Assembly: GCA_947630015.1 (NCBI GenBank)
Contig: CANRFY010000002.1
Coordinates: forward strand, 54,710 to 118,709
DNA from: an uncultured Clostridia bacterium
GTDB lineage: Bacteria > Bacillota > Clostridia > Oscillospirales > CAG-272
Reading direction: 5' to 3'
DNA: 64,000 nt
Positions 17,071 through 55,869 of the stretch are shown here, in pieces. Under the pieces are notes generated by a model. That model was given only the letters and a program-made list of their open reading frames with translations. It did no database searches and was not told where the DNA came from. How positions within the stretch are numbered: position 1 is the stretch's first letter; every line of letters begins with the position of its first letter. A program made the position numbers and the translations under genes.

Positions 17071-17175
17071 CATAAATCCCGCAATTACGCAAGCGTGGAT
17101 TTATGGGGGTGGGTTTTGGTGGGAGTTTTTTGGGGGGCTTTTAAGGAAAGCCCCCCAAACCCCCAAACCTTTTTA
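17071..17175. repeat. Mosaic-repeat locus A: hairpin modules only
   Basis: Contains the 9-bp-stem hairpin CATAAATCC...GGATTTATG (17071-17105). It also contains GGGGGGCTTTtaaggAAAGCCCCCC (17132-17156), flanked by GGTTTTGG and CCCCAAACC runs. The second hairpin is the same module as at 47101-47122. Confidence 0.7.
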
Positions 17176-17195: not shown

Positions 17196-17425
17196 GAGGT
17201 GGAGCCTGTTCGCTGCCCGATCACGGGCGATGTTGAAGCTTGTGCAAATAAATGTGCAAATAAATTTGAACTGGGTTCAAATCGTTTCACGACTGCGTCT
17301 GCGCAGGATTTATGTAAAAGGTAAGACTGGTTCGCCGCCCGATTACGGGCGATATTGAAGCTGATGCAAGCAATATTGAACGCAGTTCAAATTGCTTGCC
17401 GGTTGTGTGGGATTTATATGAAAGC
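17196..17425. repeat. Two-copy tandem repeat (~105-125 bp) with conserved hairpins, between ptsH and uvrC
   Basis: Copy 1 spans about 17203-17318 and copy 2 about 17325-17425. Shared blocks are GTTCGCYGCCCGATYACGGGCGATRTTGAAGCT, TTGAAC-N3-GTTCAAAT and GGATTTATRT. Copy 1 has an internal 2x12-bp duplication, GTGCAAATAAAT. Confidence 0.75.
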
Positions 17426-17440
17426 GCAGCATTGACATAA

Positions 17441-27198: not shown

Positions 27199-27240
27199 AA
27201 ACGCGCTGCGCGGCGAGTATTCGCCGCGCAGCGCGTTTTT
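27199..27240 (+). terminator. Intrinsic terminator after the Cthe_2159-like gene
   Basis: 18-bp stem AAACGCGCTGCGCGGCGA-gtat-TCGCCGCGCAGCGCGTTT running into a T-tract. Confidence 0.85.
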
Positions 27241-27782
27241 AAGGAAAGTTTTGAAGGGATTCATAGCGGGGTTTGGGGCAGCGCCCGACCCAGCGGTATT
27301 CGCGCTCGCGCGACTACTTCGTCGACGCACAAACGTGCATCGCAGAAGCAAACACATTTGCCATATAGCCCTTGTAAGGAAAGTTTTGCGGGGATTCTTT
27401 GCGGGGTGCGGGGCAGCGCCCCGCGAAGCGGTGTTCGCGCTCGCGCGACTACTTCGTCGCCGCACAAACGCGCGATGCAAAGGCGAACACATTTGCCCCA
27501 TAACCTTTGTAAGGAAAGTTTTGAAGGGATTCTTAGCGGGGGCAGATGCTAAGCATCTGCTAACTTTCCGCTTGCGGAAAGTTTCTTAAGCGGGGTGCGG
27601 GGCAGCGCCCCGACCCAGCGGTATTCGCGCTCGCGCGACTACTTCGTCGACGCATAAACGTGCGATGCAGAGATGAACACACTTGCCCCATAACCCTTGT
27701 AAGGAAAGTTTTGAAGAGTTCTTAGAGGGACTTTTACAAAAGTCCCTCTAAGTGGGGTTTGGGGCAAAGCCCCAAAAACCTC
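27241..27782. repeat. Mosaic-repeat locus B: about 3.5 tandem scaffold units (135-bp period) plus palindromic cassettes
   Basis: AAGGAAAGTTTTG recurs at 27241, 27376, 27511 and 27701. Palindromes are GCAGATGCTAAGCATCTGC (27541-27559), AACTTTCCGCTTGCGGAAAGTT (27561-27582) and AGAGGGACTTTTACAAAAGTCCCTCT (27724-27749). The terminal GGTTTGGGGCaaaGCCCCAAAAACC hairpin ends 2 nt before the GH42 stop. Confidence 0.9.
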
Positions 27783-29795
27783 TCACACTCTCACGACCAG
27801 CACGCCATAGGGAGGGATCGTGTGGGGGCCGCGCAAGGGGCCGCCCGTTTCGGCGTCGGAAACGGGGCGGTGAAATTCTACCTCCGACTCCGTATGTGCG
27901 AAATTGAGGATGAAAAGATATCCGCCGCGCGCCGCGATCTCGCACTGTTCCGGGACTGCGACCGTATCCGCATACGGCTCCGCGAGTCCGAGCCGCGCGA
28001 TGAATTCGCGCGCCGCCGGCTCCGTGAACGTGCCGCCGTAATAGTACGCGCATCCGCCGCCGACCGATTTTCGCGTCAGCGCGCATCTTTCCGCGAACCA
28101 AGCGTCCTCATAAAACGCGAGCGGCTCCGCCCCGTCCTTCGGCGTCACAAAATCGGCGTAAACGCCGGCGGGGAATTTCCCATCTCCCCATCTGACTGAC
28201 GCCGGCGCGTCGCCTCCCGCCTGAGCCGTCGAATCGTCGACATCGGCTCCGCACCATTCGCCCACAAGCCCGGGCAGGCTCCTCATCGGGCAATGTCCGT
28301 TTTCATCCTTGTAGCCCGCGCGGCATCCGAACACGATCACACCGCCGCGCGACGCGTATTCATAAAGCAGGCGCGAACGCGCCTCCGTCATGATCGCCGC
28401 GTGCGGATAAAACAGCACCCGATACCGCATAAGCCGCTCCACATCAGCGCCGTCGTCGATGTAGACGTAGTCGCACGGCGCGTGCAGATGCTGCGAGGCG
28501 CGGAACAGCCCCTCGACGCTTTCGCCGTCGAGCGCGCGCCTCCACGCGTCCACATCGCAGTCGAAGATGTTGTCGTAGTCGCGGACGACCGCGTACCGCG
28601 CCTCGTATGCGCTTCCCGCCAGCCCCGAAAGGCTCGACAGCGTTTTGTGTATCTCCCCGATCTCGCAAAGGCGGCGCGTGTCCCTGTTGTCGTAATTCAA
28701 AATTCCGTGCCAGTATATCTCGGTTCCGAACGGCGCGGTCCGCCAGCGGAAAAAGCTTATATAATCGGCGCCGTGCGCCGCGCTCTGCATCGCCCAGAGC
28801 TTTATCTGCCCCGGCTTCGGCTGCGGCGACATTCCCCATGTGTTCCATGAATTCGCGCCCGTCTGCTGCTCCATTATGCCGAAATTGCCCGATATCGACC
28901 GCACCGCCGACAGATCGCGGCTCCAGCCGCGATCCGCCATCCCGCGTTCGGGATGCGATCCCGTGCCGTAGGCAAAATTCGGATACGAATCGTACATGAA
29001 CACGTCGAGCGCCTCGCGCGTCATTCTGTGATTGTCGAGATGCCCGAACATCCCGTTCGTCGTGATGAAATCGTCCGGCTTTTTGTATTCGCGGATGATG
29101 TCGGCCTGCATCTTCACAAACGAGATCGCCGAATCGGAGATGAATCTGATGTAGTCCGCCATCCCGTGCGGATTGTGCGCGCCGTTTACGGTCGGGCGCG
29201 GTACGTGGACCTCGTCAAAGCTGTTGTACGTCTGATTCCAGAACGCGCACCCCCAGGCGCGGTTCAGCTCGTCCGGCGTCCCGTACCTCGCGCGCAGAAA
29301 TTCGCGAAACGCGCCGTCGTCCGATTCCGAATAAAACACATCCGCCTCGCAGTTGACCTCGTTGTCGATCTGCCAGCCGATCACGCATCTGCGGCGCGCG
29401 AAATGCTCCGCAAGCGCGCGCACGACGCGCGCGGACAGCTCGCGGTATTTGGGCGAATTATAGTTGTAATGGCGGCGCGAGCCGTGGCCGTAGCGGACGC
29501 CGTTTATATCCGCGTTGAGCGATTCGGGATATTTCTCCGTCAGCCATGCCGGCGGCGTCGCCGTCGGCGTACACATTATCACATTCATCCCGACGCGCTC
29601 GCACAGATCGAGGAATCCGTCGAAGAAATCGAACGTGAAATTTCCCTCCGTTCTCTCCGTTATGCTCCATGAAAACTCCGCAATCCTGACGGTCGTGATC
29701 CCGACGTCCGTCATCCGCAAGAGGTCCGATTCCCAAAGCGACCGGTCCCAATGCTCCGGATAATAGCATACGCCGAGCGAAACGCATCCTGCCAT
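27783..29795 (-). CDS. Beta-galactosidase, glycoside hydrolase family 42
   Basis: Start at ATG 29795 (MAGCVSLGVCYYPEHWDRSLWESDLLRMTDVGITTVRIAEFSW). Contains the acid/base block GWQIDNE. The length is about 670 aa, typical of GH42. The track ORF start at 29927 is an upstream extension. Confidence 0.9.
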   Translation of the reverse strand: MAGCVSLGVCYYPEHWDRSLWESDLLRMTDVGITTVRIAEFSWSITERTEGNFTFDFFDGFLDLCERVGMNVIMCTPTATPPAWLTEKYPESLNADINGVRYGHGSRRHYNYNSPKYRELSARVVRALAEHFARRRCVIGWQIDNEVNCEADVFYSESDDGAFREFLRARYGTPDELNRAWGCAFWNQTYNSFDEVHVPRPTVNGAHNPHGMADYIRFISDSAISFVKMQADIIREYKKPDDFITTNGMFGHLDNHRMTREALDVFMYDSYPNFAYGTGSHPERGMADRGWSRDLSAVRSISGNFGIMEQQTGANSWNTWGMSPQPKPGQIKLWAMQSAAHGADYISFFRWRTAPFGTEIYWHGILNYDNRDTRRLCEIGEIHKTLSSLSGLAGSAYEARYAVVRDYDNIFDCDVDAWRRALDGESVEGLFRASQHLHAPCDYVYIDDGADVERLMRYRVLFYPHAAIMTEARSRLLYEYASRGGVIVFGCRAGYKDENGHCPMRSLPGLVGEWCGADVDDSTAQAGGDAPASVRWGDGKFPAGVYADFVTPKDGAEPLAFYEDAWFAERCALTRKSVGGGCAYYYGGTFTEPAAREFIARLGLAEPYADTVAVPEQCEIAARGGYLFILNFAHTESEVEFHRPVSDAETGGPLRGPHTIPPYGVLVVRV

Positions 29796-29950: not shown

Positions 29951-30826
29951 ATGCCTGTTGAAAAGAAGCGCGTCGGCGCCAAGGACATCATATCGGATAT
30001 AATGTTTATACTGCTCGGAAGCGCGCTGTACGGCAGCGCGATCGTGTTCTTTCTCGGGCCGTCCGGCACCATCATGGGCGGCGCAACCGGTATTGCGACG
30101 ACGGTGAACATATTCTTCCCGCAGGTCACGATAGGTACGATGATATTCGTCGCCAACGTGCCGCTTCTGCTGATCGGTCTGCGCGTGTTCGGACTGCGCA
30201 TACTGTGGCGCGTCATCATCGCCGTTTTCTCGACGTCGCTGATGTCGAACCTGCTTGAATTCATCCCGTTCACCGTGACCGACGATCCGCTCCTCTGCGC
30301 CATAATGGGCGGTCTTCTGCTCGGCGCCGGAGGCGGCCTTCTTCTCTCCCGCGGCTACAACAGCGGCGGCTCCGATCTCGCCGCCGTGATGCTGCGTCGG
30401 ACGCTTTTGCGCGCGTTCTCGACGGGGCGCATCATATTCGGTCTCGATCTTTTGATCGTCGTCGGTTCGGCGCTTCTGACCCGCAATTATACGGGCATAT
30501 TCTATTCGCTGATCGCGACATACGCATATTCGTTCGCCATCGATTACATCATCGACGGCAATAAGACGGCGAAGATGACGTTCATCATCTCCGATAAATA
30601 CGAGGATATCGCCGACGGCATCTTCAGCGAGCTGTCGCGCGGCGTCACGCTTTTGAACGGCCTCGGCTGGTACTCGGGCAGCGAAAAACACGTCATCCTC
30701 TGCGTCGTTAAACCGCATGAACTCTTCCGCGTCAAAGCGCTCGTAAAACGCATCGACCCAGCCGCCTTCATGATCCTCACCGACGCTAAAGAAGTCGCCG
30801 GCCTCGGATTTGAGGCACTCGAATAG
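29951..30826 (+). CDS. YitT-family membrane protein (DUF2179 C-terminal domain)
   Basis: Start at ATG 29951, 6 nt after GGAGG. It has the YitT-type N-terminus DIMFILLGSALYGSAIVFFLGPSGTIMGGATGIA and a C-terminal soluble domain (VTLLNGLGWYSGSEKHVILCVV). Confidence 0.85.
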   Translation: MPVEKKRVGAKDIISDIMFILLGSALYGSAIVFFLGPSGTIMGGATGIATTVNIFFPQVTIGTMIFVANVPLLLIGLRVFGLRILWRVIIAVFSTSLMSNLLEFIPFTVTDDPLLCAIMGGLLLGAGGGLLLSRGYNSGGSDLAAVMLRRTLLRAFSTGRIIFGLDLLIVVGSALLTRNYTGIFYSLIATYAYSFAIDYIIDGNKTAKMTFIISDKYEDIADGIFSELSRGVTLLNGLGWYSGSEKHVILCVVKPHELFRVKALVKRIDPAAFMILTDAKEVAGLGFEALE

Positions 30827-31250
30827 AGGGGTGCGGAGCGATAGCTTTCGGGGCGTTTGCTTTCGGGGCGCTGCCTAAGTTTTCGGGGCGCTGCCCCAAA
30901 CCCCGCTTAGAGGGACTTTTGTAAAAGTCCCTCTAAGAACTCTTCAAAACTTTCCTGACAAGGGTGATAGGGCAAGTGTGTTCGCCTCTGCGCTGCGCGT
31001 TTGTGCGCCGACGAAGTAGTCGCGTGAGCGCGAACACCGCTGGTTCGGGCGAATGTGTTCGCTGCTTCGATGCGCGTTTGTGCGCCGACGAAGTAGTCGC
31101 GCGAGCGCGAACACCGCTTCACGGGGCGCTGCCCCGTACCCCGCTTAAGGAACTTCTTATAAGAAGTTCCTTAAGAATCTTCAAGAATTTTTATGACAAG
31201 GGTTATTTAGCGAATGTGTTCGCCTCTGCGATGCGCGTTTGTGCGGGGAT
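30827..31250. repeat. Mosaic-repeat locus C (inverted orientation relative to locus B)
   Basis: Contains three GGGGCGCTGCC(CC) hairpins and the palindrome AGAGGGACTTTTGTAAAAGTCCCTCT (30910-30935). It also contains the palindrome CTTAAGGAACTTCTTATAAGAAGTTCCTTAAG (31144-31175) and about 2.5 scaffold units (GGCAAGTGTGTTCGCCTCTGCG...CGACGAAGTAGTCGCG...GCGAACACCGC). Confidence 0.9.
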
Positions 31251-31448
31251 ACGGTGCAATTTATATTTTCTCGCGATCGGGCGCTCATGGGTGAGCGTCC
31301 GTGTTTATTAACATAAAATATACTGCTTTTTTTCGCACAATCACGATGTATTTATGCATTTTCCACGTTGTAATCTTTTCTGTGTTGTGATAAAATACCG
31401 AACTGGTGACTGTATGAAGCGCAAAATCGAAAGGAAGATATAATTATC

Positions 31449-32719: not shown

Positions 32720-32762
32720 CACATCGGCCTTTCCGTAAACGGCAAGACCGATGTGTTTTTTA
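32720..32762 (+). terminator. Intrinsic terminator after pfk
   Basis: CACATCGG...CCGATGTG stem followed by TTTTTTATT. Confidence 0.75.
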
Positions 32763-33205
32763 TTGCACAAACGCGCGATGCAGAGATGAACACACTTGCC
32801 CCATAACCCCTGTAATAAAAGTTTTTGAAAGGTTCTTAGCGGGGGCAGATGCGAAGCATCTGCTAACTTTCCGCTTGCGGAAAGTTTCCTAAGCGGGGTG
32901 CGGGGCAGCGCCCCGAAAGTCGGTGTTCGCGCTCGCGTGACTACTTCGTCGACGCACGACCGCGCGGCGCAGAAGCGAACGCCGTCGCCCAACACCATCG
33001 GTGTTCGCGCCCGCGCGACTACTTCGTCGGCGCACAAACGCGCGATGCAGAGGCGAACACACTCGCCCCATAACCCCTGTCAGGAAAGTTTTGCGGGGAT
33101 TTTTAGCGGGGGCAGATGCGAAGCATCTGCTAACTTTCCGCTTGCGGAAAGTTCGACTTTCTTTCAAAAGCTCCCCTTAAGCGGGGTGCGGGGCAGCGCC
33201 CCGAA
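32763..33205. repeat. Mosaic-repeat locus D (same orientation as locus B)
   Basis: About 3 scaffold units. The GCAGATGCGAAGCATCTGC + AACTTTCCGCTTGCGGAAAGTT cassette pair appears twice (32845-32886 and 33111-33152). GGGGCAGCGCCCC hairpins are at 32901 and 33191. The array ends 12 nt before the addA stop. Confidence 0.9.
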
Positions 33206-33217: not shown

Positions 33218-36200
33218 TCACTCAAATCTAAGCTCGACAGCGTCGCCGAGGTGCATAGAATAGATGAGGACGTGGGCGGGCGGCGCGCCGAAGATGGCGG
33301 CGAGGGCGGCCCTGTAATAGGAGAGCTGGCGCGAATGGCGGGCCGTCAAGACTTTTTCGGCCGCGCCGCGATGCGAGAGTTCATACGGCGAGAGGCGGTC
33401 GGTCTTGTAATCCACAAGCGTAATCCCGCCGTCCCGATCGCGGAAGAAGCAGTCCACGACGCCCTGAACAAGCAGCTCCTCGCCGCGGTAAAGCTCGCGA
33501 TCCGATTCCGATTCGGTGAAATCGGACGCCGGCAGCCTCACATTAAAGCGGCGCTCGCGCCATACCTGCGCCGCACCTGTTATGCGGCGATAAAGATCGC
33601 TTTTGAAAAATCTCTCCACCTCATCGATGCGGACGCGTCCCGCGTCCTCGCGCGTCATGTAGCCGAGCGCGCAAAGCCGCTCGCATTCCGCGTCCGCATC
33701 CTCGGCGGCGCGCGCAAAATCGCAGAACTGCATGAAGATGTGCGTCGCCGTGCCGGCAAGCGCCGACGGCGTCGGCGCCGACTCGGACTCCGCAGAGAAC
33801 GAGACCGCATCCTCGTCAAGGATGTTCGGCTCGAGCCGAGATACCGACAGCTTCGCCGGAAGCGCCCCGATCCGCTCATACGGATATCGGTACAAAAGCC
33901 GACGCCGTATCTCTTCCGCATATTCGGCCGTCCGCTCCGCATCAACGGCGATACCGGCAGAGCCGGCATCGCTTTCGGCGGCGGCAGCACCGGCAGCGAT
34001 CGCCTCGGTATCCCCGTCGGCGGCGCCGGCGGCGATCTCAAGCTCGTATCCGTCATAGCCGGACGCAGACAGCGCCGACAGTATCCATCCTATCATCGTG
34101 CGCTCGCTTCTGACCGCGTGCGCGGAGAAAAACTCCGCTGCAGCCGCAGCTCCGCCGACAACCCGCTCCGGATCGTCGACGCCCGCCGTCACAACAAGCC
34201 GCGACCGCGCCCGCGTCAGCGCCACATACAGTATCCTCATCTCCTCCGCCGCGTTCTCGTCCGAGATCGCGGCCGCGACGCCGCGACGCCAGAGTGTGTC
34301 GTTCATCAAGGTCGAGTTCGGATCGGCGCGCAGCTTCATCGCCGCACCCGCTGACGCCGAATACAGCACCGACGCGCGCGAATCGCGTTCGTTGCGCAAA
34401 GCGCCGCATCCGGCAAGGATCACAAGCTCAAATTCGAGTCCCTTCGATTGGTGGATCGTCATGATCCGCACCTCGCTTTTGTCCGACGACGCGGAGACGG
34501 GATTGTTGACGCCGCCCTCTATCATCGTGTCGACGTATTCGAGGAATCTGTACAGCCCGCGATATCCCCCCGACTCAAATCCGCGCGCGTATTCGTAAAG
34601 CGCCGCCACATTGTCGGCGCGCAGACGCGCTGCCGCGCCTCCGTTTTCCTCCGACCAAAGCTGAGTCTCGACTCCCGTCTCGTCCGCAATAAATCTGACA
34701 GCCTCGTCGGACGTCATCGTGCGCGTACGCGCGCGCCAGCCCCGCACAGTCTCATATGCGGCGCGGCACCGCGCCGCAAGCTTATCGTCCGGCTCTCCGC
34801 TCTCCGCGTCGCGGAGGATGTGATATATCGGCCTTTCGTCGCCCGACTTGATCCTCACAAGCTCGTCAAGACTGAACCCGAACGCGGGCGATCGCAGCGC
34901 GCCCGCCATGTATACGTCGTAGAGCGGATTGTCGCATACGTGAAGCAGACAAAGCATCAGCAGTATTTCGGGACTTTCAAAGAAATTCGCCGCCGCGTCG
35001 TTTCTGACCGGCACGCGCCGCCGTCCCAAAGCGTCTGCGAATTCGGTTCCCCGACTCTTCGCCGAACGCAGCAATATCGCGATTTTGTCGGGTGCGACGC
35101 CGTCCGCGATCGCCTTTTCGATCATGTCCGCCACAGCCTCCGGCTCGCGGCTCCGCGTCGTGACAACGACGCGCGCTGGGATTTTCCCGTCCGCGTCCGA
35201 TTTTGCGTATACGAGCGCGTCGCGGCGCTCGTATGTCACGTTCCCGAACGGCAAAAGCCGCCCGCATACAGCGTTCGTGAAATCCACGACGGCGCGGTCG
35301 CACCTGAAATTCTCCGACATGAACACAGTCTTTATCGTGTGCCTGTACGAATCGAACAGCGACGGCTCCGCTCCGCGGAAGCCGTATATCGACTGCTTTA
35401 CGTCCCCGACCATGAACCGCGTCCGCCCCGCGCCCGCGATCGCGGTAAATATCGCGTCCTGAACGCCGTTTACGTCCTGATATTCGTCGATGCAGATCTC
35501 GTCGTATTCGCGTCCGACCTCCGCCGAGACGTCGCGCCGCGATAAAAGCTCGCACGCGAACCGCTCCAGATCGTCGTAATCGACGACGGCGCGGCGGCGC
35601 TTCTCAGCCGCAAGCCGCTCGTCGAATTTGTCGAGTACGCGGCATATGATCCCGCATACGTCCGCCGTTGCCGCGATCGACGATTCAAGCACGCCGCGCG
35701 GGACCGTGAAATATTCGTCGCCGGCGTCGGCGACGAATTTGCCGAGCGCGGTCCGCGCCTCGCAGAAAAACGCGACGCGCGGCGGCTTTTCCTTGCCGCG
35801 CACTGCGGGCAGGCGCGGCAGCTCCGCTTTGTACGCCGCGATCGCCGCCGCCGTCCCGTCATAGTCGCCGGACTCGACGGACGAGAGGATCGCCGAGGCG
35901 CGGTCGCGCGAATATTCAAATACGGGCGCGTATTTCGCCCCGAAATCTGCAAAATCGGGCAGTTCTTCCACCGCCGCCGACATTATCGCGATATAATGCC
36001 GGAGTCCGTCCGCAACGCGCCTTTTGATCGCCTTGCCCGCGGCCGTATCGAGGAATCCGTCGACGCCGGCGCGAACGGCGGCCCCGGCGCTGTCCGCGAT
36101 CACACGGTGACGACGGCGTCGGCACGACGTCTTCGCGTACAGCGTCAAAAGCGTATCCGCAAGCACGCCGTCGCCTCTGCCGCCGCCTATATGATCCGAC

Positions 36201-36664
36201 AGCGTCAAGATCGAGGCGGCTTCCGCGCCGTCCGCATACATTGCGTCTATCGTCTCCTCCATGCATTCGCGGCGCAGCTGCGCCGATTCCGCCTCGTCCG
36301 GCACGCGCAGACGCGGCGGCAGATGAAGAAGCTCGTGATGCTTCTTCACAAGCGAATAACAAAAGCTGTGTATAGTCCCGACGGAGGCGTCGCCGAGACG
36401 CGCGCATTGACGCAGAAGCCTCGCGTTCCCCGTCGATTCCGCGCGCTCGCGCAGCGCGTCCGCCAGCTTCTTTTTCATATCGGCCGCCGACGCGCGCGAG
36501 AACGTCACGATCAGTATTCTTCCGATATCCGCGCCGTCCTCGACGGCTCTTACGATGCGTTCCGTCAGCGCCGACGTCTTGCCCGATCCGGCCGCCGCCG
36601 ATACGAGCATATCGACGCCGCGCGTCCCTATCGCCTCAAGCTGTGAGCTTGTCCATTCTCTCAT
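33218..36664 (-). CDS. addA: ATP-dependent helicase/nuclease subunit A (AddA)
   Basis: Start at ATG 36664, an ATGA overlap with the addB stop: MREWTSSQLEAIGTRGVDMLVSAAAGSGKTSALTERI (UvrD-type Walker A). The C-terminal RecB-type nuclease motif is LVQGVVDCFF...LVDYKTD. Confidence 0.9.
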   Translation of the reverse strand: MREWTSSQLEAIGTRGVDMLVSAAAGSGKTSALTERIVRAVEDGADIGRILIVTFSRASAADMKKKLADALRERAESTGNARLLRQCARLGDASVGTIHSFCYSLVKKHHELLHLPPRLRVPDEAESAQLRRECMEETIDAMYADGAEAASILTLSDHIGGGRGDGVLADTLLTLYAKTSCRRRRHRVIADSAGAAVRAGVDGFLDTAAGKAIKRRVADGLRHYIAIMSAAVEELPDFADFGAKYAPVFEYSRDRASAILSSVESGDYDGTAAAIAAYKAELPRLPAVRGKEKPPRVAFFCEARTALGKFVADAGDEYFTVPRGVLESSIAATADVCGIICRVLDKFDERLAAEKRRRAVVDYDDLERFACELLSRRDVSAEVGREYDEICIDEYQDVNGVQDAIFTAIAGAGRTRFMVGDVKQSIYGFRGAEPSLFDSYRHTIKTVFMSENFRCDRAVVDFTNAVCGRLLPFGNVTYERRDALVYAKSDADGKIPARVVVTTRSREPEAVADMIEKAIADGVAPDKIAILLRSAKSRGTEFADALGRRRVPVRNDAAANFFESPEILLMLCLLHVCDNPLYDVYMAGALRSPAFGFSLDELVRIKSGDERPIYHILRDAESGEPDDKLAARCRAAYETVRGWRARTRTMTSDEAVRFIADETGVETQLWSEENGGAAARLRADNVAALYEYARGFESGGYRGLYRFLEYVDTMIEGGVNNPVSASSDKSEVRIMTIHQSKGLEFELVILAGCGALRNERDSRASVLYSASAGAAMKLRADPNSTLMNDTLWRRGVAAAISDENAAEEMRILYVALTRARSRLVVTAGVDDPERVVGGAAAAAEFFSAHAVRSERTMIGWILSALSASGYDGYELEIAAGAADGDTEAIAAGAAAAESDAGSAGIAVDAERTAEYAEEIRRRLLYRYPYERIGALPAKLSVSRLEPNILDEDAVSFSAESESAPTPSALAGTATHIFMQFCDFARAAEDADAECERLCALGYMTREDAGRVRIDEVERFFKSDLYRRITGAAQVWRERRFNVRLPASDFTESESDRELYRGEELLVQGVVDCFFRDRDGGITLVDYKTDRLSPYELSHRGAAEKVLTARHSRQLSYYRAALAAIFGAPPAHVLIYSMHLGDAVELRFE

Positions 36665-39600
36665 CCGCCGCGCCTCCCCGCGCTTCTGCATACGGCGCGC
36701 GAACGGCAGCGCGCGCAGTCCTCCGGCAGCGCGTCCGCGTCGGCGCGCCCCGACGACAGCTCGCGCGCGATCCCGCGCACGGTGTCCTCGAGCTTCATAA
36801 ACAGTTCCGATATCCCGCCGCCGTCGCAGAGGCATTTTGCCGACGACGCATACGGCGTCCCGTCCGGCTTATAGCGGACGGGGATGTATTCTCCCTCGAG
36901 CGCCGGTTCCATCGCGCGCAGAACGCTTTCGTCCGCGAGCAGAATGCCGCGCCGTTCGAGACGGCGCGCCTCCTCGACGCCGTCCGGCGGAATCAGTCCC
37001 GCGTCCGTGTCGGACGGCCTCACGCCGATATAGAGGAATCCCGCCGGCACAAGCACGTCGCCGTCGGCGCCTCCGAGGCGCCGCACATTTTCGGGATCGG
37101 ACGCGATCGCGTAGAGATAGAGCGGGAGCTGAAGATTATGCCCCGTATCGATATCGTCGGGCGAAAACGTCCTGTACCCCGTCTTATAGTCGACGACGCG
37201 GACGTACACGCGCCCATCGCCGTCGCGGTACGCGTCGACGCGGTCCGCGATCCCGCACAGATATGCGCTCCGTCCGCCGCCGACGTCGATCTTTTTCGGC
37301 ATCATCGAATCGCGTCCGATTCCGAACGGAGCCTCGAACATCACGGGGCGGAACCTGCTCACCTTGAATTCATCCCTGAACGTGCGCAGTAACACAAGCA
37401 CCGACCGCCGCAGGCGGCGGAACAGCTCGCGTCCGCGTCCGTCCGCCTCGCCGCGCGGGCAGGCCCGCGCTATATAGTCCGCGATCACACCGTCGGCGGC
37501 CGCTTCAAGCTGCTCGTCCGTCGCGCCGCCGCCGATCAGACCGGACGAGAATATTTTTTCCAGCACCTCGTGGATGAAGGTGCCGATCTCGGCGTAATCG
37601 AGGCGCGCGCGCTTATGCTCGCGCAATCCGAGTACATACGAGCAGTAAAATCCGAATTTGCACGACACGAAGCTCTCGAGCCTCGACTGTGAAAATCTTA
37701 TGTCGCCGCCGAAAAGCGACGACGCCACATCCATGGATACGGACTCCTCCCCCGCCGATATCGGGTATCCGATCCCGTCCATCGTCCTTATCACCGACGG
37801 CGACGAAAATTCCGGCTCCGACAAAACGAGCCGCGCCGCCTCTCTCAGCTCAGGCGTATCCGCTCTTGTGAGCGCCGACAGCGCGCCGCGGACTGAATAA
37901 ATGTCGTCCGCCTCCGCCGCCCCGTCGAATTTTTCCCGCGTCACGTTCGGGAACAGATTCGTTATGCGCTCGATCACCTCCGGCGGGCGCGTGCCGCGCG
38001 GAGTTCTGTATGTGAAAACGACTCTGCGCCCGAGTCCTATGCAGCGGCTGAAATTGTACAGCTCCATCGCCGACTTGTATTCTCTGCTCTCGCCAACGTT
38101 GACGCCGACGCCCTCGAGCGTTATCCTCTCCGCCTCGGAGAAGAATCCGTCCCCGCCGTATGCGGGGAGTTCCCCGTCCGCGCATCCGAGCATGAATAAA
38201 AGCCGCAGTCCGTCGCGTCCCGCTCTCATCCCGACAGTGTCCGCGATCGCGACCTCGTCAGTGCGCGCCGGTATCGATCCGACCGACAGCCCGTCGAGGA
38301 TCAATCTTAAGCACGATACGTATTCCTGCGCCGACATCGGCGCGCCGCCGAGATCGGCGCTGCCGCCGATCGCGAGCGCGGCCGCCTCCACGAGCGATAC
38401 GGCCCTGTCGGCGAAATCCCGATCGAACGGCGCGCCGTCCTTTTGTTCCTCCACGAGCGCCGCGCGCAGAAATTCTACGGCGGCGGCGCTTTTCGCGTCC
38501 GCCGTCGTCGTATCCGAAAACGCGTCCGCCAGCGCCGCGAGCCGTTCGCATACGGCGCGGCGCGATTCGTTCACGGACGAAAGCGTCCGTTCGCCCGATT
38601 CGGTCCAGTCAACGGTGTATCCGTCGGGATTCATCGCCCAGCCGCCGCCGTCGGGATCGTAAAACGATCTGCCGCCTATGTTCCATGTCGTCATGTATAT
38701 TTCAAGCTCGTCGGCTTCGTCCTCGCCGATTCCCGACAGCCCCGTTTTTATGTACGCGATTATATCGTCGCGCCACCATCCGCCCGAAACGACGCGCAGA
38801 GCGCCGAACAGCGCCGACGTCGCGCGCAGCTTTTCGATCCTGACGCGGTACGACATATGGTACGGGATCCCATACGCGTCGAATACGTCGTCAATGATGC
38901 CGCGGTACGATTCGACCGATCCCGTGCAGACCGCGATCTCGCGGTACCGGACGCCGTCCCTGACGGCGCGCGCGATCTTTACGGCGACGGCCTCCGCCTC
39001 GCCCCGGCGCGTCGGCGCCTCGATCAGCTCAAAATCGCGCACGCGCCCGTCGGACGCGACCTTTTTCACGCTCCAGAGCGAATCGGTCAAAAGCCTGATC
39101 TCGCCGCGCTCCCGATCGGGCAGCGCCTCGATCGAAAACGGACGCCCCGTCGACTCCGCGATCTCATGCAGCCGCAGCCGCGTCCTCTCGATGCCGTCGA
39201 AATCGTGCCTTTTGCCTATATCGGCGGCGCTGCCCGGGATCGTGAATATGACCGTCAGCGACAGCGCGGAGCGCGAAAATTCCCTGATCACCGCGCGCTG
39301 CTGCGCCGTGAAGCCCGCGAACGAAAACATGACGACGTGCGAATTCGACAGAAAATCCGATTTATGCAGCATCGACGCCGCCGCCGACAAAACGTCGAGC
39401 CTGTCGTCGTAATGCTCGGACAAAAGCTCGCCGTAGACCTCGTAGATGTTCGCGATATCTATGTATTTTTCGTTGTCGGACGGCAGCGACAGCGCCGCCT
39501 TCATAAGCGCCTCCGGCGTCACCATGCTCGATTTCAGCTCCTCTACCGCCGAAAGCAGCATCGGCGCCGATTCCGGCGTCGCCGAATCGTAATGCAGAAG

Positions 39601-44070: not shown

Positions 44071-47061
44071 TTGCTCAGACTCGATAATATAACAAAGGAT
44101 TATACGTCCGGCGACGCCGTCGTACACGCGCTGCGCGGCGTTTCGATCGAATTCCGCAAAAGCGAATTCGTCGCGGTTCTGGGTCCGTCCGGCTGCGGCA
44201 AAACGACGCTTTTGAACATAATCGGCGGGCTTGACAGATACACCTCGGGCGAGCTGTCCATAAACGGCCGTCCCACCGTCGATTTCTCCGACGCAGACTG
44301 GGACGCGTACCGCAATCACAGCATCGGATTCGTGTTCCAGTCCTACAATCTGATCCCGCATCAGACCGTGCTTTCAAACGTAGAGCTTGCCCTGACGCTT
44401 TCCGGCGTGCCTAAATCCGAACGCCGCCGCCGCGCCAAGGAGGCGCTCGAACGCGTCGGTCTCGGCGATCAGCTCACCAAAAAGCCGAACCAGATGTCGG
44501 GCGGTCAAATGCAGCGCGTCGCGATAGCGCGCGCGCTCGTCAACGACCCCGAAATACTGCTCGCCGACGAGCCGACCGGCGCTCTCGACTCCGAAAACTC
44601 CGTTCAGATAATGGAGATACTGAAGGAGATCTCAAAGGACCGCCTCATCATCATGGTCACGCACAATCCCGATCTTGCCGAGCAGTACGCGACGCGCATC
44701 GTTCGCCTTCTTGACGGCGAGATCACCTCCGATTCCGATCCCGCGGAAAAATCGGAGCCTCTGCCCGCCGCGTCCGATGGCCAAAAAAAGCGCCGTTCCC
44801 GCGACGAGAAGGCGCGCCACACCTCGATGAGCTTTCTCACCGCGCTTTCGCTGTCGTGCAACAATCTTCTGACGAAGAAGACGCGCACATTTTTGACCTC
44901 GTTCGCCGGATCGATCGGCATTATCGGCATCGCGCTGATCCTCTCGCTCTCGAACGGCATCAGTCTCTACATCGATCAGGTGCAGGAGGACACGCTGTCC
45001 TCGTATCCGATCACGCTTCAAGCGGAGACGCTCGACGTCGGCAGTCTGTTCCGCGCGACGGCGGAGAACAGGGAGAACAACAGTCCCAAGACTGACGAGG
45101 AGCTTGGCGAGTACGTATACGCGAACAACGTCATGTACGATTTCATGAACGCTCTGAACTCGATGGAAACGACGCGGAACAATCTTTCCGCGTTCAAGAC
45201 ATACATCGAGACGGAGAAGGACGGCTCGCTCCCGCTCGCCGATTATGCAAGCTCGATCATGTACGAATACGACGTTCCGCTCAACGTCTATGTCGAGGAC
45301 AAAAACGGCGATATTGTAAAGGCTGACGCCGAATCCCTTATGCAGAGCATGATGTCGAACGTTACCGGCGGCGACGCCGGCGCGATGGCGGGTATGTTCT
45401 CGTCGAGCGCCATGTCCTCGACGATGATGGCGGGATTGAACGTCTGGGACGAGCTTCTGCCCGCGTCCGACGAGGACGGCGGCGGGCTTGTAAATCCGCT
45501 GCTTTACGATCAGTACGATCTTCTCTACGGCGAATGGCCGGACGAATACGACGAGATCGTGCTTGTCGTCGACTACAACAACCGTTTGTCCGATCTTGTG
45601 CTTTATTCGCTCGGACTTTTGACCTCGGAGGAGATGTCGGAATCGTTCATCGCGATGCAGAAGGGCGAGGAGATACACAACGACAACGGACCGTGGACGT
45701 TTGAAGAAATGTGCGCGCGTTCGGTGCGTCTCGTGATCGCCGCCGACTGTTTTGCGAAGGATCCCGTTACCGACGCCTACGTCGACATGACGAAGACCGA
45801 TCTCGGCGTATCGACGCTTTACGCAAACGCGCTTCCGCTCCGCATCTCGGGCATAGTGCGTCCGAATCCCGACGCCGTTTCGACCGCGATATCAGGATCG
45901 ATCGGATACACGACGGCGCTGACCGATTATATAATTTCCGAGACGTCCGGCCGCGACATTGTAAAGTCGCAGCTTGCCGATCCCGACACCGACGTTATAA
46001 CGGGGCTTCCGTTCCCGAAGGAGGACGCGGAGGAACCGACCGCGGACGAGATAAAAGCGGCGGTCGACGCATATATCTCCGGCCTGTCCGCGTCCGAGAA
46101 GGCCGCGATCTATGTTGCGCTCATGTCGTCGCCGAGCGACGAATACGTTGCCGGCGCAGTCGAGCAGGCGTTATCGGGGCTTGACCGCGCCGCGGTCGAG
46201 GCGATGATAGCGGAGCAGTATCCCGAATACGCCTCGATGCTCGGCGATATGCCCGACGAAACGCTGTTCGGATACGTTCGCGAGTCGATCGAGGAGCGCG
46301 TGCGCTCCGAGTATGCGGCGGCGGTCGAGCAGCAGATGAGCGCGCTCGGACTCGATCAGCTTGCGGCGATGTTTGACGCGCTGGAGCTGACGGAAGAAAA
46401 TTACGCTCTCATTTACAGCGATTACGTACCGAATCTCGAATCGGAGTCGACGTATGAGGACAACGTCGATCTGCTCGGGATCGTTGACAAGGACGCGCCG
46501 TCCGCGATCTACATTTATGCGGCGACGTTTGCAGACAAGGATTCGATCTCGACCGTCATTTCCGACTACAACGACGGCGTTGACGAGAAGGATCAGATCA
46601 CGTACACCGACTATGTGGCTCTTCTGATGTCGTCCATCACGACGATACTGAATGCGATCACCTACGTGCTGATCGCGTTCGTAGCCGTCTCGCTTGTCGT
46701 CTCGTCGATCATGATCGGCATCATCACCTACATCTCTGTCCTCGAACGCACGAAGGAGATCGGAATACTCCGCTCGATCGGCGCGTCCAAGCGCGACGTG
46801 TCGCGCGTATTCAATGCCGAGACTCTCATCGTCGGCTTCGCCTCCGGCATGATCGGCATCATCGCGACGCTCCTGCTCTGCATCCCCATCAACCTCATTA
46901 TCCGCGCCCTCACCGATATCCAGAATATCGGCGCCGTCCTCCCGTGGCAGGGCGCCGTCATCCTCGTCATTATCAGCATGAGCCTCACCCTCATCGCCGG
47001 CCTTATCCCCGCTAAACTCGCCGCCAAAAAAGACCCCGTCGTCGCTCTCCGCACCGAGTAA
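44071..47061 (+). CDS. Fused ABC transporter ATPase + MacB/FtsX-type permease with large extracytoplasmic domain
   Basis: TTG start after GGAGG. Contains Walker A GPSGCGKTT, signature LSGGQMQRV and Walker B ILLADEPT. One TM helix follows, then an extracellular region of about 560 aa, then a C-terminal FtsX domain (three TM helices). Confidence 0.85.
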   Translation: MLRLDNITKDYTSGDAVVHALRGVSIEFRKSEFVAVLGPSGCGKTTLLNIIGGLDRYTSGELSINGRPTVDFSDADWDAYRNHSIGFVFQSYNLIPHQTVLSNVELALTLSGVPKSERRRRAKEALERVGLGDQLTKKPNQMSGGQMQRVAIARALVNDPEILLADEPTGALDSENSVQIMEILKEISKDRLIIMVTHNPDLAEQYATRIVRLLDGEITSDSDPAEKSEPLPAASDGQKKRRSRDEKARHTSMSFLTALSLSCNNLLTKKTRTFLTSFAGSIGIIGIALILSLSNGISLYIDQVQEDTLSSYPITLQAETLDVGSLFRATAENRENNSPKTDEELGEYVYANNVMYDFMNALNSMETTRNNLSAFKTYIETEKDGSLPLADYASSIMYEYDVPLNVYVEDKNGDIVKADAESLMQSMMSNVTGGDAGAMAGMFSSSAMSSTMMAGLNVWDELLPASDEDGGGLVNPLLYDQYDLLYGEWPDEYDEIVLVVDYNNRLSDLVLYSLGLLTSEEMSESFIAMQKGEEIHNDNGPWTFEEMCARSVRLVIAADCFAKDPVTDAYVDMTKTDLGVSTLYANALPLRISGIVRPNPDAVSTAISGSIGYTTALTDYIISETSGRDIVKSQLADPDTDVITGLPFPKEDAEEPTADEIKAAVDAYISGLSASEKAAIYVALMSSPSDEYVAGAVEQALSGLDRAAVEAMIAEQYPEYASMLGDMPDETLFGYVRESIEERVRSEYAAAVEQQMSALGLDQLAAMFDALELTEENYALIYSDYVPNLESESTYEDNVDLLGIVDKDAPSAIYIYAATFADKDSISTVISDYNDGVDEKDQITYTDYVALLMSSITTILNAITYVLIAFVAVSLVVSSIMIGIITYISVLERTKEIGILRSIGASKRDVSRVFNAETLIVGFASGMIGIIATLLLCIPINLIIRALTDIQNIGAVLPWQGAVILVIISMSLTLIAGLIPAKLAAKKDPVVALRTE

Positions 47062-47425
47062 GGATGGTTTTTGGGGTTTCACCCCAAACCCTGACTTAAG
47101 GGGGGCTTTTGAGAAAGCCCCCCTTAAGAATCCCCGCAAAACTTTCCTGACAAGGGGTATATGGCAAGTGTGTTTGCTTCTGCATCGCACGTTCGTGCAA
47201 GGGCGAAGTAGTCGCGCGGAGCGCGAACACCGCCTCGCGGGGCGCTGCCCCGCACCCCGCTTAAGAAACTTTCCGCAAGCGGAAAGTTTCTTAAGAATCC
47301 CCGCAAAACTTTCCCTACAAGGGGTATAGGGCAAGTGTGTTTGCCTCTGCATCGCACGTTTGTGCAAGGGCGAAGTAGTCGCGCAAGCGCGAACACCGCC
47401 TCGCGGGGCGGATGCGTTCAGCTTT
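47062..47425. repeat. Mosaic-repeat locus E (inverted orientation)
   Basis: Starts 4 nt after the ABC gene stop with GGTTTTTGGGGtttcaCCCCAAACC. Next is CTTAAG-GGGGGCTTTtgagAAAGCCCCC-CTTAAG (47095-47128). Two scaffold units follow, separated by CTTAAG-AAACTTTCCGCAAGCGGAAAGTTT-CTTAAG (47260-47295). Confidence 0.9.
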
Positions 47426-47544
47426 GCGATGCGCGGTTTAAAGCGGGGCTTATCGGAACATATTGTGAAAAAGGACGCCGCCCCTGTGGCGGCGTTCTTT
47501 TATAGCATAAATCCGACATAATGAATGATTTTCGCAAAATCCAC

Positions 47545-47574
47545 TTGACAATCCAAATCTTTTATGTATATAAT
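47545..47574 (+). promoter_or_regulatory. Sigma-A-type promoter of rpmH operon (TTGACA-18-TATAAT)
   Basis: -35 at 47545-47550 and -10 at 47569-47574. It is about 80 nt upstream of rpmH. Confidence 0.65.
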
Positions 47575-47655
47575 ATTACCTGTGTTATGTCGAGGCCAAC
47601 ATACCGATCAAAACAGGTTTTGAACACATAAAGGAAGAGGAGGAGGTGCCGACAG

Positions 47656-47790
47656 ATGAAGAGAACTTACCAGCCCAAGAAGCTCCAGAGGCAGAAGGAG
47701 CACGGCTTCATGAAGAGGATGAAGACCGCTAACGGACGCAAGGTTTTAAAGAGAAGACGCGATAAGGGCAGAGCTCGCCTCTCTTATTGA
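47656..47790 (+). CDS. rpmH: 50S ribosomal protein L34
   Basis: Too short for the ORF track. It is preceded by GGAGGAGG. Translation: [44 protein letters not shown]. Confidence 0.95.
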
Positions 47791-48564: not shown

Positions 48565-50184
48565 ATGACAAGAAAAAGAAAAAAACATTCTCCGTATTCG
48601 CTGCGGATCGCGATAATGATCCTCACGGTCGCGGCGTTCGTCGTCACGATGGCGCTGCCCGTATTTGCCGATACGCCCGACACATCCGCCGACGACGGCG
48701 GCGAGGTTTCCGAGATATCGGCGCTCACCGTCAAAAAGACGGCAGAAAAGGAATCGAACGGCAAATACACGTTTACCGTCACGCTTTCGGACAAGACCGT
48801 AAACGGTCAATTCAACGCCGTCTCGGAAAACGATCTCGCCATGACGTTTGAAAACGGTGTCGCGACGTTTGAGATCGCCGACAACGGAGCCGCCTCCGCG
48901 TTGGGACTTCCGTCCGGCGTCAGTTACGTGGTCGAGATCGACGGCAAAGACGATTCCGTTTCGAGCGTAGGTTCGAGCGGGACTCTCGCCGCAGGCGTCA
49001 ATTCCGTCGCCGTATTCGACTCATACGATCCCGCCGACAGCTCGGGATTCGGTCTTTTTGACATTCTGCTCGTGCCGATGGGCTTCATCATCCGCATCTG
49101 CTACATGGTGACGCACAACTATGCGGCGGCGCTGCTTCTGTTTGCGATCGTGATGCAGCTGCTTTTGTTCCCGCTCGGCATCAAGCAGCAGAAGAACATG
49201 AACAAGCAGGCGTCGCTTCGTCCGAAGGAGCTTGCAATCCGCAAGAAATATGCGGGCAGAACCGATTCCGTTACGCAGAAAAAAGTCAACGAAGAGATCA
49301 TGGCGCTCTATCAGCAGGAAAATTTCAATCCCGCGAGCGGATGTCTGCCGCTTCTGATCCAGCTCCCCATCATCTTCGCGCTGTTCGCCGTTGTGCGCGA
49401 GCCGCTGAAATATATCACGCGTCTCCCCGCCAACATCATTTCGTCGCTCAACAGACTGTTTACGGGACTCGGCACGACCTCCGTCGGCTATGAGCAGATC
49501 GGAGCCGTATCGTATCTGAAGGATCAGGGCGCCTCCGCCGTCGGCGGATTCGGCGATCACATCTCCCAGACTGTAGTGGACGCGATGCCGACGTTCAAGA
49601 TATTCGGCGGCGCGTTCGATCTCTCCGTCCCGCCGTCGACAAAGATCTGGAGCATTTATCTTCTCGTGCCGATTCTGACGTTCGTCTTCATGTACGGCTC
49701 GATGAAGCTGACGCGCAAATTCACCTATCAGCCGCAGCCGGCGGCCGGCGACACGCAGTCGACGGCGTCCATGAAGATCATGGAATTCGTCTCGCCCGCG
49801 ATGTGTACGTATTTCGCGTTCATAGTGCCGTCCGCGATCGGCATTTACTGGATCTACCGCAACATTCTCTCGTTCGTTCAGCAGGTGATCCTGTCCAAGA
49901 TCTATCCGACCCCGACGTTCACCGACGAGGAACTCAAAGCCGCCGAGCGCGAATATCTCGGCAAGACGAAGAAAACGTCCAAGAGCGAACGCGATCCGAA
50001 CGCTCCGCGTCCGCGTTCTCTGCACCGCATAGATTTTGACGACGACGATGACGATACCGCGTCCGCGCCGTCCGCGCCCGCGCCGTCCGAAAAGAAAAAG
50101 GATCCTTTGCTTGCTCCCGCGCCATTGAAGGACGACGACGACGGCAAAAGCGGCGGCGGCGACAGCGAATCAAAGGACAAATAA
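48565..50184 (+). CDS. yidC: YidC/Oxa1-family membrane insertase with an extra N-terminal extracytoplasmic Ig-like domain
   Basis: The YidC core starts at about aa 175 (NYAAALLLFAIVMQLLLFPLGIKQQKNM ... GCLPLLIQLPIIFALF). It is preceded by a signal anchor and a beta-rich segment of about 130 aa. The C-terminal tail is charged. Confidence 0.85.
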   Translation: MTRKRKKHSPYSLRIAIMILTVAAFVVTMALPVFADTPDTSADDGGEVSEISALTVKKTAEKESNGKYTFTVTLSDKTVNGQFNAVSENDLAMTFENGVATFEIADNGAASALGLPSGVSYVVEIDGKDDSVSSVGSSGTLAAGVNSVAVFDSYDPADSSGFGLFDILLVPMGFIIRICYMVTHNYAAALLLFAIVMQLLLFPLGIKQQKNMNKQASLRPKELAIRKKYAGRTDSVTQKKVNEEIMALYQQENFNPASGCLPLLIQLPIIFALFAVVREPLKYITRLPANIISSLNRLFTGLGTTSVGYEQIGAVSYLKDQGASAVGGFGDHISQTVVDAMPTFKIFGGAFDLSVPPSTKIWSIYLLVPILTFVFMYGSMKLTRKFTYQPQPAAGDTQSTASMKIMEFVSPAMCTYFAFIVPSAIGIYWIYRNILSFVQQVILSKIYPTPTFTDEELKAAEREYLGKTKKTSKSERDPNAPRPRSLHRIDFDDDDDDTASAPSAPAPSEKKKDPLLAPAPLKDDDDGKSGGGDSESKDK

Positions 50185-50205
50185 TACGAAAGGACAAGCC
50201 GTAAA

Positions 50206-50856
50206 ATGAAACAGGAAATAACAGTCACGGGCAAGACCGTCGAGGAAGCGCTTGCGTCCGCAAGGTCGCAGATATCCGTCGAGGGAGCCGAGATGGAATA
50301 TGAAATAGTAGATTTCCCGAAGAAGGGCTTTCTCGGGATCGGCGCGACTCCCTACGTCATAAAGGTCACCTACAATATACCCGAAGAAGAACCCGCGCTC
50401 GCGTTCGTAAAATCGCTGCTCGAATCTCTCGAGCTTGACGCGACGGTCACCGCCGTCGACGGCGAGGAGGGCGAGATGAAGATCAGCATCGACGGCGAAG
50501 GCGCAGGGCTTCTGATCGGCCATCACGGCGAAACGCTCGATTCGCTCCAGTATCTTGCAAGTCTCGCCGGCGCGCGCTCGAAATCCGACGATGCCGGCAA
50601 GCGCAGGATCATCGTCGACATCGAGGGCTATCGCGAAAAGCGCGCCGAAACGCTCCGTTCGCTCGCCCGCCGTATGTCGGCGCGCGTGCTGAAATACAAG
50701 CGCAGCGTCACGCTCGAGCCGATGAATCCCTACGAGCGCCGCATAATTCATTCCGAGGTGCAGAACATCGAGGGCGTCACGACCCATTCGATCGGCACCG
50801 ACGCAGACCGCCGCATCGTGATAAGCCTCGACCGCGGCGAACGCGCGGATCAGTGA
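50206..50856 (+). CDS. jag: Jag/KhpB RNA-binding protein (Jag_N, KH, R3H)
   Basis: 216 aa with LIGHHGETLDSLQYL (KH) and LEPMNPYERRIIHSEV (R3H). It follows yidC. Confidence 0.9.
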   Translation: MKQEITVTGKTVEEALASARSQISVEGAEMEYEIVDFPKKGFLGIGATPYVIKVTYNIPEEEPALAFVKSLLESLELDATVTAVDGEEGEMKISIDGEGAGLLIGHHGETLDSLQYLASLAGARSKSDDAGKRRIIVDIEGYREKRAETLRSLARRMSARVLKYKRSVTLEPMNPYERRIIHSEVQNIEGVTTHSIGTDADRRIVISLDRGERADQ

Positions 50857-50867
50857 TCGCATCTTTC

Positions 50868-50907
50868 GGGGGGCGCGTCCGTCACGGACGGCCCCCCGCA
50901 GCTTTTT
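50868..50907 (+). terminator. Intrinsic terminator/attenuator between jag and mnmE
   Basis: GGGGGGC-g-CGTCCG-tca-CGGACG-GCCCCCC hairpin (13 bp with one bulge) followed by GCAGCTTTTT. Confidence 0.65.
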
Positions 50908-50945
50908 CAGAGTCCAATTTGCAGTTGTGAACGGAGGATCGTAAA

Positions 50946-52331: not shown

Positions 52332-52334
52332 GCA

Positions 52335-55864: not shown

Positions 55865-55869
55865 ACAAA

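Follow-up and report, generated by a model that had tools for sequence, protein, structure and literature searches.

In a stretch of 64,000 nucleotides from an uncultured Clostridia bacterium (contig CANRFY010000002.1, positions 54,710 to 118,709; hereafter the window), the interval 27241-27782 separates the stop codon of a GH42 beta-galactosidase gene from a terminator and is filled by a tandem array of mosaic repeats. An initial annotation, made from the sequence alone, had described a repeat array here; the array is real, and the extent then given for the family is confirmed in part. We find five true loci of the family in the window, totalling 1.9 kb or 3% of its length, where seven or more loci and about 3 kb had been claimed. 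The arrays and their immediate surroundings are as follows (modules are defined further below).

27241-27782, minus strand: array A, three units and a terminal linker, in the 3' untranslated region (3'UTR) of the GH42 beta-galactosidase gene
27783-29795, minus strand: GH42 beta-galactosidase gene, host of array A
27199-27238, unstranded: bidirectional terminator, an 18-bp perfect hairpin with flanking A and T runs, closing array A and the upstream Cthe_2159-domain gene
30827-31249, plus strand: array B, directly 3' of the TAG stop of a YitT-family gene (29951-30826, plus strand)
32763-33205, minus strand: array C, in the 3'UTR of addA (33218-36835, minus strand), 13 nt past the TGA stop
47062-47425, plus strand: array D, two units, directly 3' of the TAA stop of an ABC/FtsX fusion gene (44071-47061, plus strand)
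55917-56052, minus strand: solo element E (G module, palindrome, linker and half-core), directly 3' of the TAA stop of a CotH gene (56053-58059, minus strand)

Searches of the window bear out the recurrence on which the family was first recognised. AAGGAAAGTTTTG matches exactly at 27241, 27376, 27511 and 27701, the four positions originally reported, and nine times when up to two mismatches are allowed (0.41 expected). Tandem Repeats Finder recovers the 135-bp period that had been proposed (2.2 copies at 27240-27541), together with 77/78-bp sub-periods at 30970-31118 and 32920-33068. With 27241-27782 as query, blastn returns copies at 30879-31249 (minus), 32765-33204 (plus), 47066-47410 (minus) and 55924-56052 (plus), in agreement with those placed near 30827, 32763, 47062 and 55921. 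A 24-nt core pattern is found nine times (0.00 expected). The GGGGC-agc-GCCCC hairpin of the initial annotation is present, but in nine exact copies of GGGGCNNNGCCCC (0.03 expected) and not about 11. Two other regions fall away: 52335-53305, taken for decayed copies, has no significant similarity to the array family and belongs to another repeat family, and neither blastn nor nhmmer detects homology at 17071-17175, taken for hairpin-only fragments.

All loci were then re-read in host-gene sense, the host being the gene with the stop codon that the array touches, and this yields one consistent module order. The repeats had been said to occur in either orientation. Both genomic orientations do occur, but this description hides a rule, in that the array lies in the sense of its host gene at five of five loci. 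Its G end is found 0-13 nt past the stop codon at all five, and the distance is 0 nt at four; the junctions from A to E read TGA/GAGG, TAG/AGGG, TGA plus 13 nt, TAA/GGAT and TAA/GAGG. Past the other end stands a terminator-like hairpin, detected by scan at four loci and by eye at the fifth (array C, 32722-32760). Array A begins immediately 3' of the TGA stop and ends at the terminator at 27199-27238. At the two tandem-gene loci the promoter of the next gene lies beyond the terminator: array B is followed by a terminator-like hairpin (31278-31301) and then the PFK promoter, array D by a terminator (47475-47495) and the rpmH promoter, a perfect TTGACA-18-TATAAT. At the three convergent loci the stop of the opposing gene comes just past a hairpin that reads as a terminator on either strand; the one that array C adjoins has flanking A and T runs and is common to PFK, and element E is upstream of the bidirectional terminator at 55867-55898. 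Situated between stop codon and terminator, the arrays are therefore in 3'UTRs. The host genes encode, by Pfam, a GH42 beta-galactosidase, a YitT-family membrane protein, AddA, an ABC/FtsX fusion and a CotH protein, with no functional link. Arrays 1.5-3 kb apart point in opposite genomic directions, so that the orientation rule tracks transcription and not the direction of replication. This stop-to-terminator placement with a single gene-sense polarity is the new finding on these repeats.

In host-gene sense the 135-nt unit is ordered G module, optional P module, linker (L) and core, and the full unit is repeated one to three times per array. The G module is a hairpin, GGGGCGCTGCCCC, of the format GGGGC-nnn-GCCCC, followed by GCACCCCG. 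The P module is an optional perfect palindrome bounded by CTTAAG; units that have none carry a single degenerate CTTAAG-like site in its place. The linker is conserved and reads ..CAAAACTTTCCTKACAAGGGTTATGGGGCAAGT or ..AAGAATCCCCGCAAAACTTTCCTKACAAGGGTTATGGGGCAAGT, and the core comprises 60 nt (GTGTTCGCCTCTGCATCGCGCGTTTGTGCGnCGACGAAGTAGTCGCGCGAGCGCGAACAC). An nhmmer profile of the core identifies nine full cores, together with three half-cores that span core positions 1-31 to 1-36. The individual modules are located as follows.

27761-27773, unstranded: G-module hairpin GGGGC-nnn-GCCCC, stop-codon-adjacent copy of array A, one of nine exact copies in the window
27721-27752, unstranded: P module, perfect palindrome with bounds CTTAGA/CTTAAG
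30906-30937, 31144-31175, 47095-47128, 47260-47295 and 55991-56022: further P versions with other stem sequences, 100% complementary
27431-27490, minus strand: representative 60-nt core GTGTTCGCCTTTGCATCGCGCGTTTGTGCGGCGACGAAGTAGTCGCGCGAGCGCGAACAC (alignment; nhmmer E 1e-17 to 7e-20 over the cores)
27296-27355 and 27621-27680, minus strand: other full cores of array A (nhmmer)
30978-31037 and 31055-31114, plus strand: full cores of array B (nhmmer)
32923-32981 and 33001-33060, minus strand: full cores of array C (nhmmer)
47170-47230 and 47337-47396, plus strand: full cores of array D (nhmmer)
31216-31249, plus strand: half-core (core positions 1-34) at the 3' end of array B (nhmmer)
32763-32793 and 55917-55951, both minus strand: half-cores ending arrays C and E (nhmmer)
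27435-27452, minus strand: sub-module GTAG plus TCGCGC-GA-GCGCGA, resembling a repetitive extragenic palindrome (REP), the most invariant part of the core; this GTAG-tagged hairpin has the sequence form GTAG-TCGCGCGAGCGCGA

The arrays differ in how these modules are combined. Array B is composed of degenerate G modules, a pair of palindromes, two full cores at a 77-nt period and a terminal half-core, and the 77-nt period corresponds to a 135-nt unit from which the G-to-L stretch between two GGGGC motifs has been deleted. A half-core forms the 3' end of arrays B, C and E, a degenerate half-core that of D and a linker that of A. No terminal inverted repeats join both termini of solo element E or of arrays A and B, where only local hairpins and self-similarity of the palindromic modules are seen.

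Since 135 nt equal 45 codons, open reading frames (ORFs) stay open across two to three units, and a protein-coding tandem repeat, or else an artefact of assembly, had to be considered. On the plus strand of 27241-27589, antisense to array A, each unit opens with a Shine-Dalgarno-like AAGGA followed by a TTG start, and an ORF of 112 codons is kept open on that strand. At the other loci, however, the frame is broken by the 77/78-nt periods and by insertions of varied length, and the codon-position GC pattern seen in real genes of the window is missing from the ORFs that span the arrays. A 408-residue chimera of four reading frames found no homologue among 5.8 billion protein sequences. Independent assemblies were compared at loci A, B, C and E by an exact-protein look-up, in which the contigs of this species in the European Nucleotide Archive (ENA) measured at most 6 kb. 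Arrays B, C and E, and A at contig ends only, are present in independent ENA and Logan assemblies from several samples, and the recurring arrays are identical. The species occurs in the samples ERZ27249343, ERZ27249559, ERZ27249608, ERZ27249609, DRR855152 and DRR848886. They are therefore no assembly artefact, a concern raised at the outset, and the contig breaks inside arrays fit a multi-copy family: most sampled contig ends lie inside an array or at its edge. Independent assemblies, broken frames and the lack of a protein homologue together refute both explanations as far as these comparisons reach, and we give them next to no credence.

Strains whose flanking sequences are 97-99% identical differ by whole modules. 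At locus B, strain contig L018 has another palindrome cassette, another first core and one whole G-P-L block fewer than the window, and at locus C it has at least three cores at 77-nt spacing where the window shows G-P-L blocks and two cores. Behind the YitT stop codon, G modules vary in number between strains as well. The divergent block of L018 at locus B is 91% identical to locus C of the window, which suggests gene conversion between loci. The arrays thus change by recombination more than by point mutation, as the module differences show. Beside array A, we also noted that in the contig of one strain (L038:1-1530, compared with 27783-29420 of the window) only the part from window position 29423 onward aligns to the window; the gene calls that replace GH42 there are a truncated GH42 fused to a Trans_reg_C hit and another ORF. 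These differences suggest a rearrangement adjoining array A.

The P modules are variable and cassette-like. At least five stem versions were found (CTTAGAGGGACTTTT, CTTAAGGAACTTCTTA, CTTAAGGGGGGCTTT, CTTAAGAAACTTTCCGC and, in strain L038, CTTAAGGGGAGCTTTT), each of them 100% complementary with zero G-T pairs. Palindromes that are perfect yet divergent are most simply explained by a DNA-level process, for instance template switching at quasi-palindromes, and not by selection on RNA. Template switching may thus keep the palindromes perfect, while unequal crossing-over or slippage between short GC repeats, and gene conversion between loci, would account for the changes in module content.

These observations bear on the possibility that the family is a functional structured RNA, a protein-binding cis-acting 3'UTR element or a small-RNA precursor kept by selection on the RNA. 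The fixed orientation to transcription at all five loci would fit, as would the strong folding of the array relative to shuffled sequences (z = -8.6), and the core is predicted to fold compactly, two internal hairpins being enclosed by a closing helix (GUGUUCGC/GCGAACAC). The hairpin UCGCG-CGAG-CGCGA competes with that closing helix, which it overlaps, and over 12 distinct cores both alternative structures are 95-97% paired. Where the core helices have changed on a single side, the result is mostly a G-U pair in the sense strand (19 G-U cells in sense against 8 of the antisense type, counted by hand). Yet in neither model has any pair changed on both sides among the 12 cores, and shuffled alignments score as high. 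A conserved RNA fold of the core is without support from compensatory changes; the closing helix GTGTTCGC/GCGAACAC, given as possible in the initial annotation, exists and has no compensatory double changes, as was stated there. The antisense strand folds about equally well (z = -7.0), and strand preference judged from folding energy was discarded as uninformative, both strands folding strongly. Further arguments against an RNA-level function are that module content and copy number differ among near-identical strains, that the host genes share no function, that close relatives lack the family and that the variable palindromes are perfectly Watson-Crick paired without G-U, as a DNA-level process would leave them. 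We consider a selected RNA quite unlikely. No match to Rfam at gathering thresholds was obtained anywhere in the window; at E up to 10 the array gave only weak hairpin matches far under threshold, and an ARAGORN scan of the window returned no tRNA or tmRNA genes.

The family looks confined to one species of uncultured high-GC Clostridia. Relatives whose PFK protein is 87-93% identical have compact, element-free YitT-PFK or PFK flanks. The rpmH loci of ten other species, where dnaA is adjacent to rpmH, contain no repeat, and nhmmer profiles of core and linker gave only chance-level scores against the loci of all relatives that were retrieved. In 185,579 GTDB species genomes the 24-nt core pattern has six chance matches and in JGI metagenomes three, all of them single, in unrelated phyla and none extending past the pattern; the host species itself seems to be absent from the GTDB representatives. 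The same pattern has no match in IMG/VR, the G and linker patterns have none in viral contigs, and blastn of the array against phage and plasmid collections was likewise negative. With Rfam, phages and plasmids all without a match, the unnamed status of the repeat is upheld.

A close architectural parallel is the BOX element of Streptococcus pneumoniae. BOX is a composite of boxA, a variable number of boxB and boxC, and shares with the present arrays fixed end modules, variable tandem internal modules and a non-coding nature (PMC3049150). It is also predicted to fold extensively if transcribed, is enriched downstream of coding sequences and between convergent genes, is restricted to one species and its closest kin, varies in length by strain, and has been judged parasitic with side effects on co-transcribed genes (PMC3049150). 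The resemblance is one of architecture only. The Clostridia unit and its modules are much richer in GC. The ends of BOX are similar to the inverted repeats of ISSpn2; the Clostridia arrays are without terminal inverted repeats and have a strict head-at-stop-codon polarity and a cassette-like, variable perfect palindrome.

SPRITE and RUP of the pneumococcus, ERIC/IRU and Correia elements are single units, most with terminal inverted repeats, as in miniature inverted-repeat transposable elements (MITEs), or terminator-like. The present family is a tandem mosaic with neither terminal inverted repeats nor a U-tract after its hairpins. Like it, those elements are small structured repeats near gene 3' ends that are co-transcribed, and they have orientation-dependent effects on mRNA processing (PMC3049150). 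The mycobacterial interspersed repetitive units (MIRUs), a form of variable-number tandem repeat (VNTR), are similarly tandem intergenic units in transcription units, with strain-variable copy number. MIRUs lie between the genes of operons, often with overlapping stop and start codons; the Clostridia arrays, in contrast, are terminal 3'UTR structures rich in hairpins. The absence of terminal inverted repeats in element E and arrays A and B separates the family from MITEs, and repetition of the whole 135-nt period without unique spacers separates it from CRISPR arrays.

Taken together, we favour, with moderate confidence, a species-restricted, non-coding and non-autonomous mosaic repeat of the BOX type, or of the type of bacterial interspersed mosaic elements (BIMEs), housed in the stop-to-terminator gap of unrelated genes. 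The proposal that this is an unnamed modular BOX/BIME/REP-type repeat with short GC hairpins is supported, and every test agrees with it. The family is apparently undescribed, yet it represents a familiar kind of bacterial repeat and no new type of system. As a single-orientation array upstream of the terminator, it should be co-transcribed with the host mRNA, where it would form a string of stable GC hairpins, the first of them 9-15 nt past the stop codon. The family has most likely spread as a selfish or near-neutral element. Its invariant 6-bp palindrome with the GTAG tag is the best candidate recognition site for a single-strand HUH (RAYT/IS200-like) enzyme. By analogy with REP, BIME and BOX sequences, the arrays would be likely, as a side effect, to protect the 3' end of the mRNA and to interfere with termination or with translation near the stop codon, the latter because the first hairpin starts so close to it. 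In Escherichia coli, REPs within about 15 nt of a stop codon reportedly lower expression through ribosome stalling.

Several points weigh against this interpretation. It draws on five loci in a single 64-kb window, and transcription, RNA folding and effects on expression are deduced and not observed. Folding does not distinguish the strands, which score about equally against shuffles, and the G-U versus A-C asymmetry of the core is weak, with 6 pair positions against 5. The ten window proteins scanned include no transposase, and neither a target-site duplication nor a terminal inverted repeat was seen, which leaves mobility conjectural. The polarity at five loci is by itself only suggestive (p ~0.06), and if insertions were simply tolerated, a less precise placement would be expected than the one at four of the five loci, where the array starts exactly at the stop codon. 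Such a repeated start right at the stop codon is also much harder to obtain by chance than the polarity.

This precision is what an alternative would explain in which the repeat is mobile and, in the orientation of transcription, either has a gene's stop codon as its specific insertion site or itself supplies that codon. One form of it would be a Firmicute REP-like element served by an undescribed HUH enzyme acting head-to-tail; another would couple insertion to the termination of transcription or translation. The terminal hairpin (TAAGAGG...CCGCTTA) takes in the stop codon in arrays A and E. The YitT protein of array B (C-terminus at 30800-30826) ends in ..GFEALE, and its counterparts in three element-free relatives are one residue longer, ending in ..GFDAPDL, ..GFVALDL and ..GFEDIEE; the stop codon may thus have come with the repeat. 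The zero-distance starts, the stop codons within hairpins and the shorter YitT are together a hint that the element carries or targets the stop codon. The perfect palindromes bounded by CTTAAG, for their part, have the look of a place where variable hairpins arise. No common direct repeat was seen in the junction pairs of the five loci; the intergenic DNA of relatives is too diverged to offer a precise empty site. Palindrome-associated elements derived from IS200/IS605 are marked by sub-terminal hairpins without inverted terminal repeats and by insertion 3' of a fixed short target, in an orientation tied to the direction of replication. The present arrays have sub-terminal hairpins at both ends and no terminal inverted repeats; their 5' flank is always a stop codon (TGA, TAA or TAG) and not one fixed tetranucleotide, and neighbouring arrays 1.5-3 kb apart have opposite orientations. 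Insertion at, or supply of, the stop codon strikes us as distinctly doubtful.

The GTAG-tagged hairpin of the core brings in a related alternative, a true REP/RAYT system, in which the GTAG palindrome is a REP moved as single-stranded DNA by a REP-associated tyrosine transposase (RAYT, a Y1 HUH transposase) encoded elsewhere and the remaining modules are passenger linkers as in BIMEs. GTAG REPs are palindromes of 20-40 bp with stems of 6-13 bp and loops of 2-3 nt (PMC3733652). In all nine cores a GTAG stands directly 5' of a perfect 6-bp stem with a 2-nt loop (TCGCGC-nn-GCGCGA), 18 nt in all with the tag, which fits this format (PMC3733652). The sub-module is the most invariant part of the unit, its copies differing mainly in the loop, and the arrays end reproducibly a few nucleotides 5' of it. 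As with REP and BIME sequences, the repeats are GC-rich short palindromes in mosaic arrays with linkers, belong to a species-specific family and lie downstream of coding regions, where they are probably transcribed.

Against this stands, first, the layout: all nine cores are head-to-tail, and within an array all have the same orientation, whereas REPs alternate in BIMEs and most GTAG families have few head-to-tail dimers or none. Moreover, a Pfam scan of ten window proteins revealed no transposase domain and no RAYT or IS200-like gene near the arrays, and the opposite directions of arrays 1.5-3 kb apart, following transcription, are unlike a single-strand insertion biased by the replication strand. 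The probability that a 4-nt tag stands by chance beside one of about five hairpins is a few percent, and in some core copies a pairing of GTA with the TAC on the far side is possible, which leaves the tag not clearly unpaired. The REP-like part is a minor piece of the 135-nt unit, and nine copies in 64 kb may be set beside the roughly 100 or more per genome expected of REPs. The host is a Clostridia-type Firmicute, and the words 'Firmicutes', 'Clostridi' and 'Gram-positive' are absent from the text of the GTAG survey (PMC3733652). A true REP/RAYT system is in our view unlikely, and the link is kept only as a lead and not as a classification.

Finally, the arrays could be binding sites for a chromosome-organising protein in an origin-proximal region, in the manner of gyrase and IHF on BIMEs. 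Some segments of the core alignment are indeed highly invariant (CGACGAAGTAGTCGCG and the linker), the window contains the origin-proximal genes rpmH, rnpA, yidC, jag and mnmE, and GC skew flips its sign near 52 kb. A DNA site, however, has no need of a fixed orientation to transcription or of a position at stop codons, and there is no DnaA-box cluster; we regard this explanation as very improbable.

The window holds further non-coding features beside the arrays. A 1.2-kb stretch right after the mnmE stop codon (52332-53519) houses a second, unrelated repeat family. Within it, 52458-52560 and 52844-52898 share 82-83% identity with segments that lie upstream of PFK in a contig of a related species (L017) and are arranged there as an inverted pair; 53258-53297 is a perfect 17-bp palindrome with a T-run, and short-read contigs of the host species break at 53041 and 53258. 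The minimum of the cumulative GC skew, with a change of sign as at a replication origin, falls at about 50000-53000. An origin in the 52-53 kb stretch was considered and rejected: the skew flip is present, but a DnaA-box cluster is not. Near rpmH, synteny breaks at the repeat array (44071-47790), with the ABC/FtsX gene and array D upstream of rpmH; in ten related species dnaA is divergent and adjoins rpmH, and dnaA was not seen in the window. At 17125-17160 there is a solitary hairpin (GGGGGGCTTTT/AAAGCCCCCC) with a stem identical to the palindrome at 47095-47128, and next to it, at 17200-17440 beside the start of uvrC, two diverged units of about 120 nt, in which 17208-17247 and 17330-17369 are 87.5% identical. 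Neither the hairpin nor these units have an Rfam match.

Small mosaic repeats have been well studied in Proteobacteria and streptococci and hardly in the uncultured high-GC Clostridia of gut and environmental metagenomes. In this species the family accounts for the breaking of short-read assemblies into contigs of about 2-6 kb, because most sampled contig ends fall in or at the edge of arrays. Module number varies among strains that are 97-99% identical, and the arrays could therefore serve as VNTR-like typing markers. Their strict stop-to-terminator placement and single polarity also offer a clean system in which tolerated passengers can be told from modulators of mRNA 3' ends. If the lead given by the GTAG hairpin were true, REP/RAYT biology would be extended to Firmicutes in an unusual head-to-tail layout, and either such a link or a targeting of stop codons would raise the interest of the family.

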